30,300 nt of DNA from a virus. The DNA is taken from UHGV virus genome UHGV-1280366; one strand, written 5' to 3'. Made by a program: the position numbers and the translations under genes. Shown here one piece after another: positions 6,392-26,845 of the stretch; the first letter of the stretch is position 1, and each line of letters starts with the position of its first letter. The notes beneath the pieces are model-generated. The model was not told the origin of the DNA and did not search any database. It was given only the letters and a program-made list of their open reading frames with translations.

Positions 6392-7102
6392 TCAGAAGAA
6401 CCCTGCCTTGTCGTTGATGTACTCCGCGTGCGTCTGGATATCACGCAGGCATTTGCTCACACCGACGATGTAGCAGAACATGGTGGTCAGCTCCGCCGCC
6501 GCGCCCGATACGTCGTGCCCGTCTTCCTGTAACTGGTTCAGCAGATTCATCAGCAGTGAGTTTTCCGTCAGGCCGAGAACACCAGACGGAGAATGAATCA
6601 GGCTGCGGTAGCCGGGCTTCAGTGGGGCGCTGTAGGTTTTGTTCTCTATCTTCATTGCCTGCATCACTGCTGATGCTGTGGCGTTGGCTACCTGGTCGGC
6701 AACCATCTTTATGCGTTCTTCCTGCGGGAGCGAGTTTTTAATGTAACTTCCTGTGCGGCGGATCTGAGGAAGAACCTCACCTGTAACCCATTTACGAAAG
6801 CGGTAGGGGATAGTGCCTGGTGTTACTGCATCGCGGCAGCGGAGGATCAGTGTGTAGAGGCCTGACTCGGAGATGATGTTGATCTCTTTTACTCGGCTGT
6901 CAAAAATTGCACGATGTTCATGCCCTATGTTGAACATAGACCTTTCATCATCATCCAGTTTTTCAAGTGATTGGGTGACGTTTTGGATACGCAGCGCACT
7001 ACAAACGTCTTGGGCTACAAACCATGGTTGGCCATCGATAATGATGGAACGGATAGGGTTAACAGATTCAAATTTGAAGATGGCAGTTTGAGCATTAGCC
7101 AT
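6392..7102 (-). CDS. Bro-N / KilA-N family antirepressor-like protein
   Basis: N-terminal region (FKFESVNPIRSIIIDGQPWFVAQDVCSALRI...) resembles Bro-N DNA-binding domains of phage antirepressors; start moved to MANAQ (ATG 7102) with GGAGATAA upstream. C-terminal domain is paralogous to the product of 7418-7675. Confidence 0.7.
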   Translation of the reverse strand: MANAQTAIFKFESVNPIRSIIIDGQPWFVAQDVCSALRIQNVTQSLEKLDDDERSMFNIGHEHRAIFDSRVKEINIISESGLYTLILRCRDAVTPGTIPYRFRKWVTGEVLPQIRRTGSYIKNSLPQEERIKMVADQVANATASAVMQAMKIENKTYSAPLKPGYRSLIHSPSGVLGLTENSLLMNLLNQLQEDGHDVSGAAAELTTMFCYIVGVSKCLRDIQTHAEYINDKAGFF

Positions 7103-7258
7103 GGTGGTTATCTCCACTTAGTGATTTTAATCACCACCGCAACGCCAATTACTGGTGGTGAACTGGACAAGGTTGGCGTACCGGCCTAAGTGGTACCGGC
7201 GTCCTTTCGGACCCCTGCCCAGCCCACCATAATTCGGATATAGCTGTGCTTAACGCAT

Positions 7259-7280
7259 AAAAAAACCACGTCTGGCGTGG
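7259..7280 (-). terminator. rho-independent terminator downstream of minus-strand gene 7418-7675
   Basis: CCACG-ccaga-CGTGG hairpin followed on the minus strand by seven T (A-run 7259-7265 on +). Confidence 0.55.
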
Positions 7281-7371
7281 TATGCGCCACTTAGTAACTC
7301 GGGACGCCAATCCCGGCACTGGATTTTGCCAGTGCCCGATTACTATGGCACAAGAGGAGTGCAATGTAAAT

Positions 7372-7871: not shown

Positions 7872-9980
7872 ATGACGGTCTCAACCAAAGTTGACCACAA
7901 CGAATACACAGGTAACGGCGTTACGACATCGTTTCCGTATACTTTTCGAATTTTCAGAAAATCAGACCTGGTTGTTCAGGTGTCTGACCTGAACGGGAAC
8001 GTAACAGAATTGGTTCTGGATACCGGTTATACGGTAATTGGGGTGGGAGCTTATAGTGGTGGTACAGTGGTTCTTCCGTCGCCGCTTGCTGCTGGCTGGC
8101 GAATCACTATAGAGCGTGTGCTTGATGTGGTGCAGGAGACTGACCTTCGAAATCAGGGGAATTTTTTTCCAGAAGTTCATGAGGATGCATTTGACTACCT
8201 GACGATGCTGATTCAGCAGTCTTTTTCTGGTCTATCTCTTGCACTCAGAAAGCCATCACGTTTATCAAATTATTATGATGCTCGTGATAACAGAATCCAA
8301 AACTTAGCAAGCCCAATTCTCCCGAACGATGGTGTAAACCGTAATTTTGTAGAAAACCTTTTTATTGATAAAAGCGCATCTGCTTCTGCATTGCGCTCTT
8401 TGCTGGAAAGCGCAGCTGGGGCTGGAATAATTGGTACATTGCAGGGATTAACCGTTCAGTCAGTTTTAGATAATGTAAAAATCCCACTGACGTCATTCGT
8501 GTTTTCTATTCCTGATGATTTTGCTAATGCAGATTCTTTAGCAGAATATCTTGAAAATAGATGCTATACCGGCACGCAAGTAATAGTACATGTCTCAGCA
8601 GGCACTCATAATTGGAATACTCTAAATAAGATTTTTGGGAAAGAGTGGGGTTTTGGCCGACTTAAATTTGTTGGTGAAGGAATGGATTTGACAATTATTC
8701 AGTTTCTTAAACAGGACGGAATTTATGCTGAAGCAGGTGAGTGTTATGGTCATGCGCCACAGTTTCCCGTGAGTGGTGGTGATATAATACCAATATTTAG
8801 TAATTTAACTATATCAGGAATTGACAGAGATTCAGGAATTGATGATCCATATCTTGATTCAATGGGGATAAGGGCGTTTGACGGCGGTGTTGTTGTACTT
8901 GATGAAAGCGTAAGAATAACTCAGTTTTCCAGGTGTGGAGTTATGGCTGAGAGGCATGGTATAGCTTTTGTTCCTGGGGTTAAAGTCGATACTACAGGTT
9001 CTGATTGTTTCGCTGCCTCTGAAGGTGGTTATATCTATTGTCCAGACTCTACAGCAAGCAACCCGAAAGGTCATTGCTACATCGCATATTCTGGAGGGCA
9101 GCTTTATATGCCTAACTGTATTGCTCAGAATGCAGAGACACACAACTCGTCAAATGTAGGGGGATCTGGTCTTGTGTTGACCGGAAGCAGTTACGCTTAC
9201 GCTATTAATCTTCAAACTAAAAACAATGCTCAACGTGGAATTAGTGTGGCGTTAGGGTCTTTTCTACGAGCTGACGGGTTTACTGAGAGTGAAAATATTC
9301 TACCTGTGACTGTTTCGCAGGGTTCCACGTTGGTTTCTCCAAATTGCACAATAAACAAACCAGATGCTCTTGCGCTTTTAATTGAGAAAGGAGGAAAGGC
9401 ATTTTTCCAGGTAGCAACAACTGATAAGTTTACTATGTATGGTAGAGCAACAGTACAGTCAATGGGGGTTCTTCATGCACCAGATGGCGACATAACGAAC
9501 AGTTCAGGCAATTCAATATCTGCAATTAACTCAACAGTTGACGTTGACAGAACAACTTTCCATGGTTCTCCTGCTGTAGCTATCTATGCCATGGATGGAG
9601 CGATGGTTAAATGTAGCAATGGAGAATCTCAGACAACTACAGGGACAACAATTATTGCTCAAAATGCAAAGGTTATCGCTGATGGCTTTAAGGTAAAAGG
9701 AAATCCATCAATAGGGTTTAGAGCAACTATGTCTGGAATAATTTCTGCGAAAAACACATCAGTTATCAAGGCCGGTCAATATGGTTACTTTTCTGAAAAT
9801 ATGGGGGCATTTATTGATGCTACAGGTGCTACAGTAGGAGATGCTTTCTCTGGTTTTAAAGCAATAAACGGAGCCAGAATTAATGCTACGCAATCAGATG
9901 CTACAGGATCATATACAGGAGGTGCTTATAGCCCATCAGTAAATTTAGCAGATGAAAAACTAACAATAATAATAAAGTAA
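7872..9980 (+). CDS. tailspike / tail fibre protein (702 aa)
   Basis: N-terminus (NEYTGNGVTTSFPYTFRIF...DLVVQV) carries the conserved podovirus tail-fibre/tailspike N-terminal adaptor motif; Gly/Ser/Thr-rich C-terminal 500 aa consistent with a beta-rich receptor-binding domain; GGAG RBS; last late gene before attP. Confidence 0.8.
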   Translation: MTVSTKVDHNEYTGNGVTTSFPYTFRIFRKSDLVVQVSDLNGNVTELVLDTGYTVIGVGAYSGGTVVLPSPLAAGWRITIERVLDVVQETDLRNQGNFFPEVHEDAFDYLTMLIQQSFSGLSLALRKPSRLSNYYDARDNRIQNLASPILPNDGVNRNFVENLFIDKSASASALRSLLESAAGAGIIGTLQGLTVQSVLDNVKIPLTSFVFSIPDDFANADSLAEYLENRCYTGTQVIVHVSAGTHNWNTLNKIFGKEWGFGRLKFVGEGMDLTIIQFLKQDGIYAEAGECYGHAPQFPVSGGDIIPIFSNLTISGIDRDSGIDDPYLDSMGIRAFDGGVVVLDESVRITQFSRCGVMAERHGIAFVPGVKVDTTGSDCFAASEGGYIYCPDSTASNPKGHCYIAYSGGQLYMPNCIAQNAETHNSSNVGGSGLVLTGSSYAYAINLQTKNNAQRGISVALGSFLRADGFTESENILPVTVSQGSTLVSPNCTINKPDALALLIEKGGKAFFQVATTDKFTMYGRATVQSMGVLHAPDGDITNSSGNSISAINSTVDVDRTTFHGSPAVAIYAMDGAMVKCSNGESQTTTGTTIIAQNAKVIADGFKVKGNPSIGFRATMSGIISAKNTSVIKAGQYGYFSENMGAFIDATGATVGDAFSGFKAINGARINATQSDATGSYTGGAYSPSVNLADEKLTIIIK

Positions 9981-10077
9981 GCAATATGCTATAGTTCATG
10001 ACTTATTAATGATAACTATATGCACAAAGCTTTGCACTTGATTGCAATGCTTTGTGCCATTCTATAGTTAAGGTGGA
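9981..10077. other. candidate attP region between convergent tailspike and int genes
   Basis: 97-bp AT-rich spacer with ctatagtt direct repeats (9989-9996, 10061-10068) and a 9-bp inverted repeat GCACAAAGC...GCTTTGTGC; position by analogy to lambda/P22 attP adjacent to the int 3' end. Core not identifiable without attB. Confidence 0.35.
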
Positions 10078-11236
10078 TCACTCCACCTTTTCATCAAGCC
10101 AGTCCGCCCACCACTGCATCATTTCTCTGCGCTTATCTAGATACTGAGCATGGTTGTAAATACCGCGCACAGATCCGCCGTTGGCATGTGCCAGTTGCAC
10201 TTCAATAGCGTCAGCAGGCCATTCATGCTCGTTCATAATCGTGCTGAATTCATGCCTGAATCCGTGACCGCTTTCCAGACCTTCATAGCCGATTTGTTTG
10301 ATCACAAGTAGCACCGCGTTCTCGCAGATTGGCTTCTTCTTATCGTTGCGTCCGGCAAAAACAAACTCTGATACTGGTTTAGTGATGGAGCTTAGCGTAG
10401 TGAGAAGTTCAACCACCTGGTCTGACATCGGGACCACATGAATTTTGCGTCCCTTCATCACACTGGCGTCGATGGTGATAATCCTGTTTTCAAAATCGAC
10501 GTTCTTCCATTGCATGGAGCGAAGCTCTTTCGTTCTTAGGGCTGTGTAGCGTAAAACTTTGGTCGCAATGAGCGATACGATACTTCCTGAAAATGTTGCC
10601 AGTGCTTTGTTGAATGCCGGGATCTGGTCTGCAGGAAGAAACGGGAAGTTCTTCTTGCGGTATCCCTTCATGGCGTCAGCAAGGTCAGGTGCCGGGTTAT
10701 ATTTAGCCCTACCAGTGACAATAGCGTAACGGAAAACCTCGCCGCATCTTCTGCGGGCTTTGTTGGCTCGCTCCATTGCACCGCGATCTTCAAATCTGCG
10801 GATTACTTCCAGCAGTTGCATCGGCTCAATATCCAGAATCTCGAGACCGCCGATGATGGGTAAAATGTCGTCATCAAACATTTTGGCAAGTTCAGTCGCA
10901 TACCCTACAGACCAGACTTGCTTCTTGTGCTCGTACCATTCCTTGTAAATGGCGCTAAAGGAATTGTTGTTAGACGAAGCCTTTTTCGCTTTTACCGGAT
11001 CTATGCCAACCGAGATGTCTTTCCTCGCAGTCCATGCTCTATCCCTTGCCTCCTGCAAAGTCATAAGCGGATATTTTCCGACAGTCAGGATTTTCTCCTT
11101 ACCGTCAATCTTGTAGCGAAGCTGCCATACCTTTTTCCCGGATACAGGGACATAAAGATACAGGCCATTACCATCGAGAAGGCGGTATGGTTTTTCTTTC
11201 GGCTTTGCTGCTTCAATCTGCTTAACGGTTAGCATG
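10078..11236 (-). CDS. int: tyrosine integrase (P4-like, N-terminal arm-binding domain)
   Basis: N-terminus MLTVKQIEAAKPKEKPYRLLDGNGLYLYV matches the arm-binding domain of P4-family integrases; C-terminal region has catalytic-domain features (HGFRH, tyrosine near the C-terminus). Track start 11271 is GTG; ATG 11236 chosen. Confidence 0.9.
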
Positions 11237-11500
11237 GGTAAAAATCCGGTGGGTAAAATTATTTTATCCACTTTTTACCCGTCATGGTGTGCGGCTGTCA
11301 ACGATCTGACGCGAACCATGACGAACCGTGAATATACGGAAGGCTTGATATTCAGGGGATTTTGCGGACTGGTGCGGATGGGAGCGAACTGATAAATGGT
11401 GTCCCCTGCAGACATCTACTTGAGGCAGCAGGGGATTGATTGGAATGGTGTTTTTGAGATGTGAGAAATATTTTACCCGCTATTTTACCCATTGGCGCGG
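11233..11500. repeat. cluster of GGGTAAAA / TTTTACCC octamer repeats around the int start and the int-xis spacer
   Basis: At least five copies in both orientations (about 11235, 11252, 11273, 11473, 11486); possible Int/Xis or regulator binding sites. Confidence 0.4.
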
Positions 11501-14267: not shown

Positions 14268-15029
14268 TCATGCAGCCTCCTCATCTCGTGGCTTACAGAA
14301 AATACCGCACTCAAAATCCATATCCTTCATCGGCCTACCAATAGCATCTGGCGGTAGTTCATCAAGGAACATGCGAACGCCTTTATGGCGAACTAGCCTT
14401 GCTCCGATTCGACGAGACTGCTCAGCGCGATGCTGGAAAACCTCAGGGTGAACTTTTCTTACGTGATTCCAGTAAGTCGGAGATGTGGCTTTTACGCAGC
14501 CAATGCAGTTGGCGTTGTGGTATCCAAGCTGATAGATGCGAGGCAGGACAATTCCGGCCTCGAGTAAAATCGTGAAGCAGTCGCCCTTGGTAAGCCCGGC
14601 ATCAATAAGCACTGGCAGCAAGTCGTGCCGTTCATTTTTGACAAAGTTCTCTGCGCGATGTGCTTCATCTGCCGTAAATCCCAGAACAACATGGTCACAC
14701 TTATTGCTTTGCTCCCAATGCTTCCTGGCGAGCTTCTTGAGTGCTTTGGTGCATGGAGCACCTGCAATGCCAGACATGTACTGTTGGTGGTCCCACACCT
14801 CTACCGCGCTGGCATTAGGGAACATCGGATTTACTACTGACTCGATTCTGATACCCAGCCATCCCTCGACGTCATGCAGAAAGCGGACATTATCTTCATC
14901 CTCTTCAGCGACCGGGTTGTTCAACACGCGAATCTCGTGAGTATCCCCATATTTCTCAAATGTCAGCTTGGCGGCCACGGCGCTGGCAGCCCCGCAGGAA
15001 AACCAAACTGCTATTACCGGCTTGCTCAT
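14268..15029 (-). CDS. PAPS-reductase-like (PP-loop ATP pyrophosphatase superfamily) protein
   Basis: N-terminal VIAVWFSCGAASAV resembles the PP-loop SGGxDS motif; Cys-rich C-terminus; ATG 15029 overlaps the upstream stop (ATGA). Confidence 0.7.
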   Translation of the reverse strand: MSKPVIAVWFSCGAASAVAAKLTFEKYGDTHEIRVLNNPVAEEDEDNVRFLHDVEGWLGIRIESVVNPMFPNASAVEVWDHQQYMSGIAGAPCTKALKKLARKHWEQSNKCDHVVLGFTADEAHRAENFVKNERHDLLPVLIDAGLTKGDCFTILLEAGIVLPRIYQLGYHNANCIGCVKATSPTYWNHVRKVHPEVFQHRAEQSRRIGARLVRHKGVRMFLDELPPDAIGRPMKDMDFECGIFCKPRDEEAA

Positions 15030-15730
15030 GCTGCACCGCCTTTGCGAAGTTTCTGCGCCAGCCATTCGAGCGCCATTACCGGCACACCGATGTGACCAGT
15101 TCCTTCGAACTTCTTGATAAGATGCTCGATTGAAGCGTCCACACCGCTGGCCCGCACTTCAGCCAGGAAAGCGTCGGTGGCCGGGGTGTTGATTTCTGGC
15201 TTGGCATATACCGGCCAGCAATCAGTACCGTCGGAATTCTTGTGGCCAGCATCATCGTGAACATCAAGATACTCACCGCACGGGAGAGGGTCTTCCCATG
15301 TTGGCGGGATAGTGTGCCAGGATAGATAGGCTTGAGGCTTGTCAAACGCAGCCTTCAGCCCCGCATTCTCCGCAGCCAGCGCCGAAAACTTCTCGTGTGC
15401 CAACTTAACGGCTGCATCTGCCTGCCTCATTGCCTCCATTGCTTTCTCGTTATCAGTTGCTAGCGCCGCGCACTTGGCTTCAAGTTCGGCAAACTTATCA
15501 GCCACTGATTTCGGCCCGTCTTCGCCGCAAGCCTGCATCATTGATGACTCCCATGCTCTTTCTGCTGCTTCCGATAGCTTTAATTGCACTTCAAGTAATG
15601 CAATCTTTGATTCAAGCTCACCAAATTTACGCACCAGATATTCAGCGTTTGTTTCGTTAACCTTTAAATCTCGTGGGATGCATTTACCTTTCAGAAATCC
15701 ATACATCTCAATTAGTGTCATTTGTTTCAT
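15026..15730 (-). CDS. Ea22-like coiled-coil hypothetical protein
   Basis: Track start is GTG; ATG 15730 with GGAGTGGG RBS; long Ala/Glu/Lys coiled-coil segment typical of lambdoid Ea22-like proteins. Confidence 0.55.
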
Positions 15731-16505: not shown

Positions 16506-17093
16506 TCAGAAAGGAGGGTAATCGTTCTGGCTGTAACCATAATCATCTGCATGATTCTGGCTTACGTTTTTAGAGCGATTGTCTTTATCTTTGAGATTGG
16601 CAACCATGTTGGCGATAGTTTCTGGTTGCTTGCCTTCTGCCTTTTCTTTTAGGGTTTGACCTGTTTGTGCAATAAACGGGATGCGTATCTCCATCTGGTA
16701 ACTGTCTGCGCCAGTCTTTTTGTTTGTGGTTAATACTTTCTGGAGCACTAACCCGATTTTCTTTCCGTGAAACTCAGGAGCAACAAATTTACTGGCGGAA
16801 ACCATATGTTGCGTTAATTGCCCAATCCCGGCACACCCCATCATAGCGTGAACGACATTTGCGCCAAATTTGTTTTCCGTGCCGTCATTTTTCTGAACAC
16901 AAACGCTAAGATACTGGATTTTACGACCGTCGTCGGATTCTCCAGAAAACTCAATAAATTTGGCTCCTTTTTCTGATTGCTTTAGTTCTGCTTCAGTAAT
17001 TGTAATGATATGAGCGCCAGTTTCGTTAATAAAACCGCCTTGTCCTGCGGTCAGTGCTGCTTCTTCGTTATAAGTAAAAATCACGTTGCTCAT
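16506..17093 (-). CDS. putative single-stranded DNA-binding protein partnered with the Sak4-like ATPase
   Basis: Start overlaps the stop of the ATPase gene (ATGA); ends in an acidic/aromatic tail (...DDYGYSQNDYPPF) reminiscent of SSB C-terminal tails. Assignment is inferential. Confidence 0.5.
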   Translation of the reverse strand: MSNVIFTYNEEAALTAGQGGFINETGAHIITITEAELKQSEKGAKFIEFSGESDDGRKIQYLSVCVQKNDGTENKFGANVVHAMMGCAGIGQLTQHMVSASKFVAPEFHGKKIGLVLQKVLTTNKKTGADSYQMEIRIPFIAQTGQTLKEKAEGKQPETIANMVANLKDKDNRSKNVSQNHADDYGYSQNDYPPF

Positions 17094-17770
17094 GCGGCGT
17101 TTTCCTTAATTTGATGAACATTATTGATGCCGTAGTAATCACAAACAGTGGCATCGACGAAAGAGAGATCGTTATCAATCTCATTGGAGTCAAACATTCC
17201 CATTGGGGATTTAACAGTGTCTGCACCGTTGTTTTTTGTGGTGAAAAAGAACTGGTCATCGCGGGTAAGAGTGCGAAGAACTATAGTAAACATGCCTTCG
17301 ACAGTGATTTTCTCGTCCAGCATTTTGCCGATAGTCTTCATTTTCACGCGCCCCATAGGGGTTTCTTCGGTGTGCGCAAGAAAATAGACTCTCAGGTCAT
17401 CAGGTGCATCCTGTGCAGCCTTAATCACCTCCCATGCGTGGCGGCCTATCTCAGTAAATTTATCAAACGATTTTTCTTCTGAGCGGCGCATAAACTCATT
17501 GCTCATCACATACTGGAAGTCATCAACAATAACGATTCTTTTTCCGTATTCGTGAGCACGCTTAATTACAGCAACTATTACGTCCCATTTGTCAGTGGTA
17601 ACTACGGTTCCTTTTTTTGCTCTGGCATCCCATGCAAGCCAGTCTTTTGATTTAAATGGTAGCGGCTTGCCTATTGGTTTTATAAGTATTGCATCCTCTG
17701 GATTGATATTTCTCATGCTGGTTGATTTTCCGGTGCCAGACTCACCGAGTATTAATGTTGCAGTTCCCAT
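17090..17770 (-). CDS. Sak4-like RecA-fold ATPase (recombination/annealing module)
   Basis: Walker A GESGTGKST near the N-terminus and hhhhDD Walker B (IVIVDDFQ); size and position match Sak4-type proteins in lambdoid early-left operons. Confidence 0.7.
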   Translation of the reverse strand: MGTATLILGESGTGKSTSMRNINPEDAILIKPIGKPLPFKSKDWLAWDARAKKGTVVTTDKWDVIVAVIKRAHEYGKRIVIVDDFQYVMSNEFMRRSEEKSFDKFTEIGRHAWEVIKAAQDAPDDLRVYFLAHTEETPMGRVKMKTIGKMLDEKITVEGMFTIVLRTLTRDDQFFFTTKNNGADTVKSPMGMFDSNEIDNDLSFVDATVCDYYGINNVHQIKENAA

Positions 17771-18077: not shown

Positions 18078-18210
18078 TTTTTGGGACTCCTGGCTGATTA
18101 AGTATGTCGATAAGGCGTTTCCACCCGTTACGTAATTTACGGGTGATTCGTTCAAGTAAAGATTCGGAAGGGCAGCCAGCAACAGGCCACCCTGCAATGG
18201 CATATTGCAT
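18070..18210 (-). CDS. cIII: CIII protease-inhibitor (stabilises CII)
   Basis: MQYAIAGWPVAGCPSESLLERITRKLRNGWKRLIDILNQPGVPKNG is near-identical to lambda CIII as recalled; AAGGAG RBS. Confidence 0.8.
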   Translation of the reverse strand: MQYAIAGWPVAGCPSESLLERITRKLRNGWKRLIDILNQPGVPKNG

Positions 18211-18270
18211 GGTGTGCTCCTTATTTATACATAACGAAAACGCCTCGAGTGAAGCGTTATTGGTATGCAT

Positions 18271-23845: not shown

Positions 23846-24286
23846 ATGAAAAAACTAACCTTTGAAATTCGATCTCCAGCACATCAGCAAAACGCTATTC
23901 ACGCAGTACAGCAAATCCTTCCAGACCCAACCAAACCAATCGTAGTAACCATTCAGGAACGCAACCGCAGCTTAGACCAAAACAGGAAGCTATGGGCCTG
24001 CTTAGGTGACGTCTCTCGTCAGGTTGAATGGCATGGTCGCTGGCTGGATGCAGAAAGCTGGAAGTGTGTGTTTACCGCAGCATTAAAGCAGCAGGATGTT
24101 GTTCCTAACCTTGCCGGGAATGGCTTTGTGGCAATAGGCCAGTCAACCAGCAGGATGCGTGTAAGCGAATTTGCGGAGCTATTAGAGCTTATACAGGCAT
24201 TCGGTACAGAGCGTGGCGTTAAGTGGTCAGACGAAGCGCGACTGGCTCTGGAGTGGAAAGCGCGATGGGGAGATCGGGCTGCATGA
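23846..24286 (+). CDS. ninB: NinB (Orf) recombination mediator
   Basis: Near-identical to lambda NinB as recalled (MKKLTFEIRSPAHQQNAIHAVQQILPDPTKPIVVTIQERNRSLDQNRKLWACL...). Confidence 0.9.
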   Translation: MKKLTFEIRSPAHQQNAIHAVQQILPDPTKPIVVTIQERNRSLDQNRKLWACLGDVSRQVEWHGRWLDAESWKCVFTAALKQQDVVPNLAGNGFVAIGQSTSRMRVSEFAELLELIQAFGTERGVKWSDEARLALEWKARWGDRAA

Positions 24287-24810
24287 CTATCAAATCAAAT
24301 ACGCCAGCACACGACAAGGACTGCTGGCAAACGCCGCTTTGGCTTTTTGATGCACTGGATATTGAATTTGGATTCTGGCTGGATTCGGCAGCGAGCGACA
24401 AAAATGCTCTGTGCGCTCACTGGCTAACTGAGGCTGACGACGCGCTAAATTCTGAGTGGATAAGCCACGGTGCAATCTGGAATAACCCACCGTACAGCAA
24501 TATCAGGCCGTGGGTGGAAAAAGCCGCTGAGCAGTGCATACAACAGCGACAGACGGTAGTTATGCTTGTGCCAGAGGATATGTCAGTCGGATGGTTCAGC
24601 AAGGCTCTGGAGAGTGTCGACGAAGTTCGCATTATCACTGATGGACGGATTAATTTTATCGAACCATCGACAGGGCTGGAGAAGAAGGGAAACAGCAAAG
24701 GCTCCATGCTGCTGATTTGGCGACCGTTCATCAGTCCTCGACGGATGTTTACTACCGTATCCAAAGCGGCATTGATGGCGATCGGGCAGGGCGTCAGGAG
24801 GGCGGCATGA
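24283..24810 (+). CDS. dam: phage DNA N6-adenine methyltransferase (Dam family)
   Basis: [13 protein letters not shown]...FDLD-like N-terminal motif and NPPY catalytic motif; ATGA overlap with the ninB stop; sits where lambda has ninC. Confidence 0.8.
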
Positions 24811-24983
24811 GACGACAGCGACGAAGTTTCACCGACATCATCTGCGAAAACTGCAAATACCTTCCAACGAAGCGCTCCAGAAATAAACCCAAGCCAATCC
24901 CAAAAGAATCTGACGTAAAAACCTTCAACTACACGGCTCACCTGTGGGATATCCGGTGGCTAAGACATCGTGCGAGGAAATGA
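24807..24983 (+). CDS. ninE: NinE
   Basis: [53 protein letters not shown] matches lambda NinE as recalled; ATGA overlap with dam. Confidence 0.8.
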
Positions 24984-25387
24984 CAATGCTTTTAATTCAA
25001 CCTGGATTTGGCCTTAGCATCAAAAAAGGGCACATGTTTGGCGAGAAAGAGTCTCAACGAAAAATGGTGTCGATACAGTTGCCATTTATCAGTATTTGTT
25101 GGCTAAACAGGGAGGCAACAAATTATTGGTATACATGCGCCAGAGCAGCATTTAACGACCCTGACTGGTTTGTGAATAACCACCACGCAGTTCGTCAGGC
25201 AAAGAGAAAGGCCAATACGACATACATGAAGGCGTATCGAAAAGCATGGAAAGAACACCGGGATCGATACCAGCAAGACATGGAAAAGCTTGAATCAGAA
25301 AACATGGAATTAAGACGAAAGCTTGGTGAAGCAAAACGAGACATTGATGCTTACAAGCGACTTTTTAATGGTGAAAGCCATGCTTAG
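24980..25387 (+). CDS. hypothetical nin-region protein (NinX-like by position)
   Basis: ORF between ninE and ninF; track start is GTG, ATG 24980/24986 with GAGGAA RBS; its 3' part lies inside the duplicated unit. Confidence 0.5.
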
Positions 25388-25556
25388 CCCATCCCAATCC
25401 CTTCAATACCAGAAAGAAAGCGTCGAGCGGGCTTTAACGTGCGCTAACTGCGGTCAGAAGCTGCATGTGCTGGAAGTTCACGTGTGTGAGCACTGCTGCG
25501 CAGAACTGATGAGCGATCCGAATAGCTCAATGTACGAGGAAGAAGACGATGAGTGA
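25380..25556 (+). CDS. ninF: NinF (copy 1)
   Basis: [58 protein letters not shown] matches lambda NinF as recalled. Confidence 0.8.
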   Translation: MLSPSQSLQYQKESVERALTCANCGQKLHVLEVHVCEHCCAELMSDPNSSMYEEEDDE

Positions 25557-25671
25557 TTACCTGAAATGGTATCTCTGCCACCGCTGGTTAATTAAGTTTG
25601 CTGTAAAAGACTGGATGACAGCGGATGCCAACAAGCTTAAGCAAAGAGAAAGGCCAATACGACATACATGA
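25549..25671 (+). pseudogene. truncated chimeric copy of the 70-aa gene created by the duplication junction (MSDYLK...[14 protein letters not shown])
   Basis: Same start context as 25991-26203 but the frame runs across the junction into a new stop after 40 codons. Confidence 0.45.
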
Positions 25672-25821
25672 AGGCGTATCGAAAAGCATGGAAAGAACAC
25701 CGGGATCGATACCAGCAAGACATGGAAAAGCTTGAATCAGAAAACATGGAATTAAGACGAAAGCTTGGTGAAGCAAAACGAGACATTGATGCTTACAAGC
25801 GACTTTTTAATGGTGAAAGCC

Positions 25822-25998
25822 ATGCTTAGCCCATCCCAATCCCTTCAATACCAGAAAGAAAGCGTCGAGCGGGCTTTAACGTGCGCTAACTGCGGTCAGA
25901 AGCTGCATGTGCTGGAAGTTCACGTGTGTGAGCACTGCTGCGCAGAACTGATGAGCGATCCGAATAGCTCAATGTACGAGGAAGAAGACGATGAGTGA
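25822..25998 (+). CDS. ninF: NinF (copy 2, identical duplicate)
   Basis: Identical sequence to 25380-25556, shifted by 442 bp. Confidence 0.75.
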   Translation: MLSPSQSLQYQKESVERALTCANCGQKLHVLEVHVCEHCCAELMSDPNSSMYEEEDDE

Positions 25999-26203
25999 TT
26001 ACCTGAAATGGTATCTCTGCCACCGCTGGTTAATTAAGTTTGCTGTAAAAGACTGGATGACAGCGGATGCCAACAAGCTTAAGCAAAGAAAAGACTATTA
26101 CTACGCCAGAATGAAGGAAAACTACTGCTCAATTCGCACTCGCATATTTATTAAAAAAGACCTTCAGTCAATTCTTCAATTGCGAGGGAAGGTAAATGGC
26201 TAA
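25991..26203 (+). CDS. hypothetical nin-region protein (70 aa)
   Basis: ORF with ATG overlapping the ninF stop (ATGAGTGA); intact only in the second copy. Confidence 0.5.
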   Translation: MSDYLKWYLCHRWLIKFAVKDWMTADANKLKQRKDYYYARMKENYCSIRTRIFIKKDLQSILQLRGKVNG

Positions 26204-26486
26204 CCTACGCAAAGAAGCGCGCGGCAGAGAATGCCAGGTACGTATTTACGGCGTATGCAATGGCAACCCTGAAACTACAGTTCTGGCACATTACCGGATG
26301 GCTGGAATTTGCGGAACGGGAATGAAGCCTGACGACCTGATCGGCGCATGGGCTTGTAGCGCGTGTCACGATGAAATCGACCGACGCACCCATAACCTCG
26401 ACAACAAAGACGCCAGACTTTACCACCTCGAAGGCGTGATCAGGACGCAGGCGATACTGCTGAAGGAGGGGAAGATTAAGTCATGA
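26196..26486 (+). CDS. DUF1364-family (YbcO-like) zinc-binding nin-region protein
   Basis: 96 aa with CxxC...CxxCH pattern; positioned immediately upstream of rusA as ybcO is in DLP12. Confidence 0.7.
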   Translation: MANLRKEARGRECQVRIYGVCNGNPETTVLAHYRMAGICGTGMKPDDLIGAWACSACHDEIDRRTHNLDNKDARLYHLEGVIRTQAILLKEGKIKS

Positions 26487-26845
26487 ACGAATATCAGTTT
26501 GTGCTTCCATACCCGCCGTCGGTGAATACCTACTGGCGAAGACGGGGAAGCCAATACTACATCAGCGATAAAGGCCAGAAATACCGAAAAGACGTTCAGC
26601 AAATCATCCACCAACTCAAGTTAGATATTTTCACCAAATCACGACTCCGCATCAAAGTCATCGCAGACGTTCCAGACTCCCGCCGCCGCGACCTCGATAA
26701 CATCCTGAAAGGTTTACTCGACTCCCTTATCCACGCCGGATTTGCGGAAGACGACGAGCAATTCGATGACATTCGCGTAATTCGTGGCGTGAAAGTACCA
26801 GGCGGAAGGCTTGGAATAAAAATCACCGAACTGGAGAACGTATGA
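26483..26845 (+). CDS. rusA: RusA Holliday-junction resolvase
   Basis: 120 aa; conserved motifs (LPYPPSVN.YWR, PDSRRRDLDN, GGRLGIKITE) match RusA. Confidence 0.9.
   Translation: MNEYQFVLPYPPSVNTYWRRRGSQYYISDKGQKYRKDVQQIIHQLKLDIFTKSRLRIKVIADVPDSRRRDLDNILKGLLDSLIHAGFAEDDEQFDDIRVIRGVKVPGGRLGIKITELENV

Follow-up and report, generated by a model that had tools for sequence, protein, structure and literature searches.

The nin region of the phage genome UHGV-1280366 contains what appears to be one stretch of DNA present twice in direct succession, which raises the questions of whether the repeat belongs to the phage or to its assembly, how and when it could have formed, and what it does to the genes that it cuts. 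We approached these questions by comparing the window, i.e., the whole stretch of DNA that was analyzed (30,300 nucleotides), with itself, with protein and RNA family collections, and with related phages, prophages, and metagenome contigs.

A perfect head-to-tail repeat in the nin region

The two copies announced by a sequence-only reading of the window were found at exactly the expected coordinates (Table 1). They are identical at 442 of 442 positions (0 mismatches) and stand head to tail, with nothing between them. At a period of 442, identity covers exactly 449 bases (25199-25647 versus 25641-26089): it extends 0 bases leftward and 7 bases rightward, and breaks at G 25648 versus A 26090. 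These seven bases, GCAAAGA, open the unit and recur directly after copy 2, in agreement with the 7-bp boundary microhomology that had been claimed, and the sequence across the novel junction (about 25633-25653) reads AAGCTTAA/GCAAAGAGAAAGG, with the slash at the joint. Tandem Repeats Finder returned the duplication as the sole tandem array of the 30.3-kb window (period 442, 2.0 copies, score of 1783). A perfect repeat of 442 bases cannot have arisen by chance. Either copy could be the newer member of the pair.

Table 1. Features of the duplicated segment and its surroundings (window coordinates)
Feature	Coordinates	Strand	Evidence or remark
Intact 133-aa gene, PHROG 1511, function not assigned, not NinX	24986..25387	+	phrog_1511, E=2e-85
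ninF copy 1, 58 aa, zinc-ribbon-like	25380..25556	+	Pfam NinF PF05810, 47.3 bits (cutoff 27.5); phrog_672, E=1e-37
Chimeric ORF, 40 aa	25549..25671	+	33 N-terminal residues of the 70-aa protein, followed by 7 residues read out of frame from the 133-aa gene and a stop
53-aa ORF, residues 81-133 of the 133-aa protein	25668..25829	+	phrog_1511 positions 81-133
ninF copy 2, identical to copy 1	25822..25998	+	
Intact 70-aa gene, PHROG 3973, function not assigned	25991..26203	+	phrog_3973, E=2e-52
Tandem duplication copy 1, 442 bp	25199..25640	.	442/442 identity to copy 2
Tandem duplication copy 2, 442 bp	25641..26082	.	With either copy deleted, the window aligns without gaps to the single-copy relatives L001, L090, and L094
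Left 7-bp microhomology GCAAAGA, progenitor left site	25199..25205	.	Same place in 6/6 single-copy relatives sharing the arrangement
Novel junction TTAA/GCAAAGA, one retained microhomology copy between the repeats	25641..25647	.	
Right 7-bp microhomology GCAAAGA, progenitor right site	26083..26089	.	Present in L001, L090, and L094

The window comes from a temperate phage of mosaic, P22-like/lambdoid type, and its genes stand in vegetative (non-integrated) order. Ejection-protein genes are followed by the tailspike gene (7872-9980), the integrase gene (10078-11271, minus strand), an early left operon encoding a Sak4-like annealing protein and an SSB, a cI-like repressor, O, a primase-helicase, the nin region, Q, and the lysis genes. 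Only 97 bp (9981-10077) lie between the tailspike stop and the end of the integrase gene, which indicates a vegetative or circular order with an intact attP and no integrated prophage. Within the nin region, Dam (24283-24810) is followed by NinE (24807-24983), the 133-aa protein, NinF, the 70-aa protein, YbcO/DUF1364 (26196-26486), RusA, a NinH-like protein, and Q. All neighbors from Dam to Q overlap by 4 or 8 nt, except that 2 nt separate NinE from the 133-aa gene. The same arrangement is found in the lambda ninR region, described in an entry of the reference list of PMC10695390 as a "chain of interlinked genes."

Several other features of this phage were noted along the way. The recombination module (16506-17770, minus strand) pairs the Sak4-like single-stranded DNA annealing protein with an SSB-like protein, while many relatives have Erf or Red-beta instead; NinB and RusA are also encoded. 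Directly upstream of a Bro-N antirepressor-like ORF, Rfam matches were obtained to the C4 antisense RNA, at 66 bits, and to isrK, at 67 bits (7151-7335 and 6392-7117, both minus strand). This P1/P7-type c4-ant immunity module occupies the place of immI in P22, with the ejection-protein genes on one side and the tailspike gene on the other. Another strong Rfam match (18165-18223, minus strand; 88.5 bits) is to the lambda cIII thermoregulator element and indicates that the early left operon includes a cIII gene of the lambda type. The same operon carries a 265-aa ORF (14268-15065, minus strand) that matches the PHROG "phosphoadenosine phosphosulfate reductase" (phrog_424, E=4.5e-43) and no Pfam family at E<=0.001.

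Genes and reading frames at the breakpoints

The left breakpoint coincides with codon 72 of the 133-aa gene, and the right one lies inside codon 31/32 of the 70-aa gene. Both breakpoints are intragenic, yet each of these two genes is kept as an intact copy. The duplication additionally yields two intact, identical ninF genes and a truncated chimeric ORF, both as previously claimed; the chimera has 40 aa and an out-of-frame tail, and its residues 1-34 match phrog_3973. Its TGA is overlapped by 4 nt (ATGA) by the ATG of the 53-aa ORF, which in turn overlaps ninF copy 2 exactly as the native 133-aa gene overlaps ninF copy 1. Because the new ORFs overlap their neighbors by 4 or 8 nt, the interlinked chain from Dam to Q runs on without a break, and we expect little polarity. 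With this spacing, the 53-aa fragment could be translated by coupling, and translation of both the 40-aa and the 53-aa ORF is predicted from their reading frames. Promoters, terminators, and Rfam RNAs were searched on the coding strand of the 442-bp unit and none was found; on the minus strand, there was only a weak terminator-like pattern, below the number expected from shuffled sequences.

The sequence-only reading had also described a promoterless duplicate of the 3′ end of a NinX-like gene. The duplicated 3′ part is indeed present, but the gene, a member of PHROG 1511, is "NinX-like" by position only. No match to PF10765 (Phage_P22_NinX) was obtained for the 133-aa protein at E<=0.01. The genuine NinX of phage vB_EcoP-683R2 (L002:1695-2048) scored 79.1 bits against this family and did not align with the 133-aa protein in BLASTP at E<=100. 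The only feature common to both proteins is their position between NinE and NinF, and the 133-aa protein is an alternative occupant of this slot. Nor is the lack of a promoter a relevant property of the duplicate, as nin genes form a promoter-less chain on the pR transcript in which starts and stops overlap by 4 or 8 nt.

We also considered that the duplicated C-terminal fragment might correspond to a natural stand-alone gene, given its matches to the 56-aa family phrog_18832. This candidate was rejected, since 57 of 58 phage records have the full-length gene, and split matches to the 133-aa gene turned out to be two-piece (frameshifted) copies, for example in AU5Stx1 and H-19B. Salmonella phage GE_vB_TR, in which the 133-aa protein matched in two places, was set aside as well: it is an UNVERIFIED record with indels and contains no duplication.

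Residues 66-127 of the 133-aa protein are predicted to form one long helix, with pLDDT values of 84-97 over residues 81-130 in a single-sequence model. The C-terminal half (residues 66-133) consists of a basic stretch followed by a coiled-coil-like segment and shows sub-threshold similarity to the bZIP proteins C/EBP alpha and Nrf2 (E of about 0.6-0.8), while the N-terminal 40 residues have no confident model. A function for NinF, the 133-aa protein, and the 70-aa protein was looked for in Pfam, PHROGs, NCBIfam, PADLOC, and the PDB, and none was found, nor any defense or anti-defense annotation; comparisons with NCBIfam, PADLOC, and the PDB gave only sub-threshold coiled-coil or bZIP-like similarities for the three proteins. 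Lambda can do without its nin region, ninF included; the region acts mainly by polarity on Q, which is its only influence on plaque formation (PMC10695390). Our search of the literature for a function of NinF found this dispensability and no assigned role.

Single-copy relatives and the origin of the repeat

Comparison with related genomes, which had been suggested as a check, identified several relatives with a single copy. A 1,901-base query was fully covered in seven complete E. coli genomes, where it spanned 1,459 bases (1,901 minus 442). When one copy was collapsed, the query aligned without gaps (1459/1459) to a prophage of E. coli E7476, with 26 mismatches and GCAAAGA at both breakpoints. 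Two closer relatives, L090 and L094, are metagenome scaffolds found through contigs encoding exactly the phage's 133-aa protein. Both are single-copy and 100% identical to the window across the unit and 100 bases of flank at either end. In L094, an E. coli prophage on an ENA metagenome scaffold of 379,887 bp, all 1,938 bases corresponding to window positions 24461-26840 match, minus the extra copy. GCAAAGA is present at both breakpoints in L094, L090, and L001, the latter two being likewise colinear with the window and single-copy. Judged by its sequence, L094 is the exact pre-duplication allele.

These relatives also date the event. Within the unit, the remaining single-copy relatives and the window differ at 6-9 positions, and the probability that the two copies would still be identical if the duplication were as old as those lineage splits is 0.0001-0.0025, which points to a very recent duplication. 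The combination of the 133-aa gene, ninF, and the 70-aa gene occurs in only 6 of 105 related loci. Among these six, the right-hand site is polymorphic, with GCAAAGA in L001, L090, and L094 and a degenerate version (ACAACGA or GCAACGA) in L086, L008, and L057, so that the perfect 7-bp substrate is specific to certain lineages.

The novel junction was contiguous in none of the 50,697 phage records and 5,426 complete E. coli genomes searched by megablast with an 80-mer, and its exact 40-mer was absent from IMG/VR, GTDB species genomes, and JGI metagenome contigs. Matches reported at "100% coverage" of the 80-mer consist of two pieces about 449 bp apart, i.e., both ends of one single copy. An exact look-up of the 40-aa chimeric protein among called genes returned no record, and self-BLAST detected a local direct repeat of at least 60 bp in 0 of the 105 related nin loci. 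The duplication is so far unique to the UHGV-1280366 sequence.

The same comparisons brought out further variation in this part of the genome. In most of 80 IMG/VR relatives (L003-L082), homology to the window starts exactly at the ninF ATG (25380), and in many its other end also lies no more than a few bases from the ninF stop (25556). On these homology limits, ninF is a mosaic module whose edges are its own start and stop codons; the gene upstream of it varies and may be NinX, the 133-aa protein, a DNA methylase, or NinD/NinE. HNH_3 endonuclease genes are found at differing nin junctions of relatives (L090:5056-5580, L099:3441-4008, and L101:3441-3947), where they separate YbcO from RusA or NinF from the 70-aa gene, suggesting mobile homing-endonuclease-like insertions. 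A 99%-identical copy of the 70-aa protein, encoded inside an enterobacterial-type nin region, was also found on a 9.7-kb contig in a Cellvibrionaceae MAG bin (L083; JAUVQU010000080.1), which is probably a mis-binned E. coli phage contig.

A direct repeat that flanks the progenitor unit and remains as a single copy at the joint is the signature of illegitimate recombination between microhomologies. The earlier suggestion of a microhomology-mediated duplication, either very recent or artefactual, thus agrees with the presence of GCAAAGA at both breakpoints of single-copy L094 and of one copy at the window junction. We consider it likely that the repeat is a real, very recent, and probably neutral tandem duplication of this kind. 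The progenitor would have carried one 442-bp unit flanked by the 7-bp direct repeat, with its two sites 442 bp apart. In a RecA-independent illegitimate event, the right-hand GCAAAGA of one strand or molecule would have paired with the left-hand GCAAAGA of the template, most likely through backward slippage of the nascent strand (template switching) during replication. Unequal annealing of sister or concatemer copies, aided by the phage's Sak4-like protein, SSB, and NinB, would be a less likely route given the very short 7-nt homology: seven bases are too few for known annealing proteins to act efficiently, and we infer this mechanistic step from precedent. Either way, the 442 bases would have been copied twice, leaving a single GCAAAGA at the new junction and, as the outcome, intact 133-aa and 70-aa genes together with an extra ninF, the 40-aa chimera, and the putative 53-aa helical fragment. 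No DNA secondary structure joining the two GCAAAGA sites was found; the minimum free energy resembled that of shuffled sequences (z = 0.04) and the sites were unpaired. Moreover, the collapsed nin region contains 247 comparable 7-mer repeat pairs spaced 50-1000 bp apart, showing that the GCAAAGA pair is not special.

Such a duplication would most likely be selectively neutral and would have survived because so short a repeat is lost only slowly. Short duplications are known to disappear slowly (for 2.6 kb, the rate of loss is about 1e-4 per generation) and to be hard to detect by short-read assembly (PMC12607827; Lee et al., mBio 2025). The persistence of the 442-bp repeat hence needs no selection, and an unselected repeat of this size can persist and yet be rare in databases.

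An assembly or finishing artefact would also account for perfect identity of the copies and for a duplication seen in one sequence only. In a circularly permuted genome, a 442-bp overlap between contig ends could be joined or rotated untrimmed, leaving a false internal tandem repeat, and assembled phage isolates, whose contig ends are arbitrary, typically show the vegetative or circular order seen in the window, where 97 bp separate int from the tailspike gene. Terminal-overlap artefacts of circular or permuted assemblies are likewise perfect direct repeats, internal and in tandem if rotated untrimmed, but they differ in that their ends are arbitrary. Boundary microhomology of at least 7 bp is found at only 42 of 27,416 arbitrary 442-bp offsets in the window sequence (0.0015, i.e., 0.15%), and a naive join of a 449-bp overlap would place two adjacent GCAAAGA at the junction, where only one is present. 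To our knowledge, 442 bp is not a common k-mer overlap length, which also counts against this explanation. Furthermore, short-read assembly usually collapses or misses tandem duplications rather than inventing them (PMC12607827). We therefore regard an artefact as unlikely. If it were one, the deposited genome would be 442 bp too long and would carry four spurious ORF annotations.

Positive selection would instead require that a doubled ninF dose or a new small protein (the 40-aa chimera or the 53-aa helical fragment) helps the phage, perhaps against host defense in the way of the dmd-tifA amplification of T4. Adaptive amplification bounded by microhomologies has a precedent in T4 (PMC9391042), and ninF is contained whole within the duplication. 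The 53-aa fragment is well placed for coupled translation, and its long helix, confidently predicted, could pair with the full-length protein. However, the copy number is only two, local duplication does not recur in any of the 105 related nin regions, the three proteins have no known function or defense-related annotation, ninF is dispensable in lambda, and short duplications persist unselected, making a selective benefit improbable. We hold it equally improbable that the locus represents early gene birth or dosage adaptation, in which a free 53-aa coiled-coil fragment, produced by coupling, could modulate the 133-aa protein while NinF is doubled, and in which either change would be favored in the host of isolation, for instance against a defense system. 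Finally, the modular behavior of ninF might suggest that gene conversion has kept the copies of an old duplication identical, or that the second ninF came in as a module by mosaic recombination, but this reading is effectively refuted: the unit ignores module boundaries with both ends intragenic, no other genome searched has it duplicated, an exact single-copy progenitor with identical flanks exists, and import from another phage would not yield 442/442 identity and a microhomology junction.

Relation to known duplications

The recent microhomology-mediated duplication favored here is an instance of a well-known mutation type and involves no new system or mechanism; its main value is as a quality-control case and a clean example for textbooks. 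If it is real, it captures illegitimate recombination in a lambdoid phage before divergence, with a known progenitor, intragenic breakpoints, and intact by-products (the spare ninF, the chimera, and the fragment). It would then also exemplify the raw material assumed by the "random illegitimate recombination plus selection" model of phage mosaicism.

Among the classical examples, tandem duplications in lambda, such as those of Bellett, Busse and Baldwin in 1971 and of Emmons and colleagues in 1975, were reportedly isolated by selection for packaging size among deletion phages, and RecA-independent duplications between short homologies in E. coli, such as those at ampC by Edlund and Normark in 1981, are said to have been isolated by ampicillin resistance. 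These classical lambda and E. coli duplications are spontaneous, their novel joint comes from recombination between direct repeats of a few bases, and they are mostly kilobases long. In contrast, the duplication described here measures 442 bp and was found by sequence alone, and its exact progenitor allele comes from a metagenome.

More recent work offers two further points of comparison. The duplications whose slow loss was measured in Pseudomonas aeruginosa were engineered and 2.6-497 kb long (PMC12607827), whereas that of UHGV-1280366 would be spontaneous and lies in a phage. The closest likeness in anatomy is to the segmental amplifications of dmd-tifA in T4, where 6-10-bp microhomologies flank the progenitor unit and one copy is retained between the repeats (PMC9391042; Srikant, Guegler and Laub, eLife 2022). 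Both cases share head-to-tail repeats and the same microhomology anatomy. The T4 amplifications, however, arose repeatedly and independently under toxIN selection, with several copies and compensating deletions, whereas the present duplication occurs in a temperate P22-like/lambdoid phage, with two copies, no recurrence in relatives, and no known selection.
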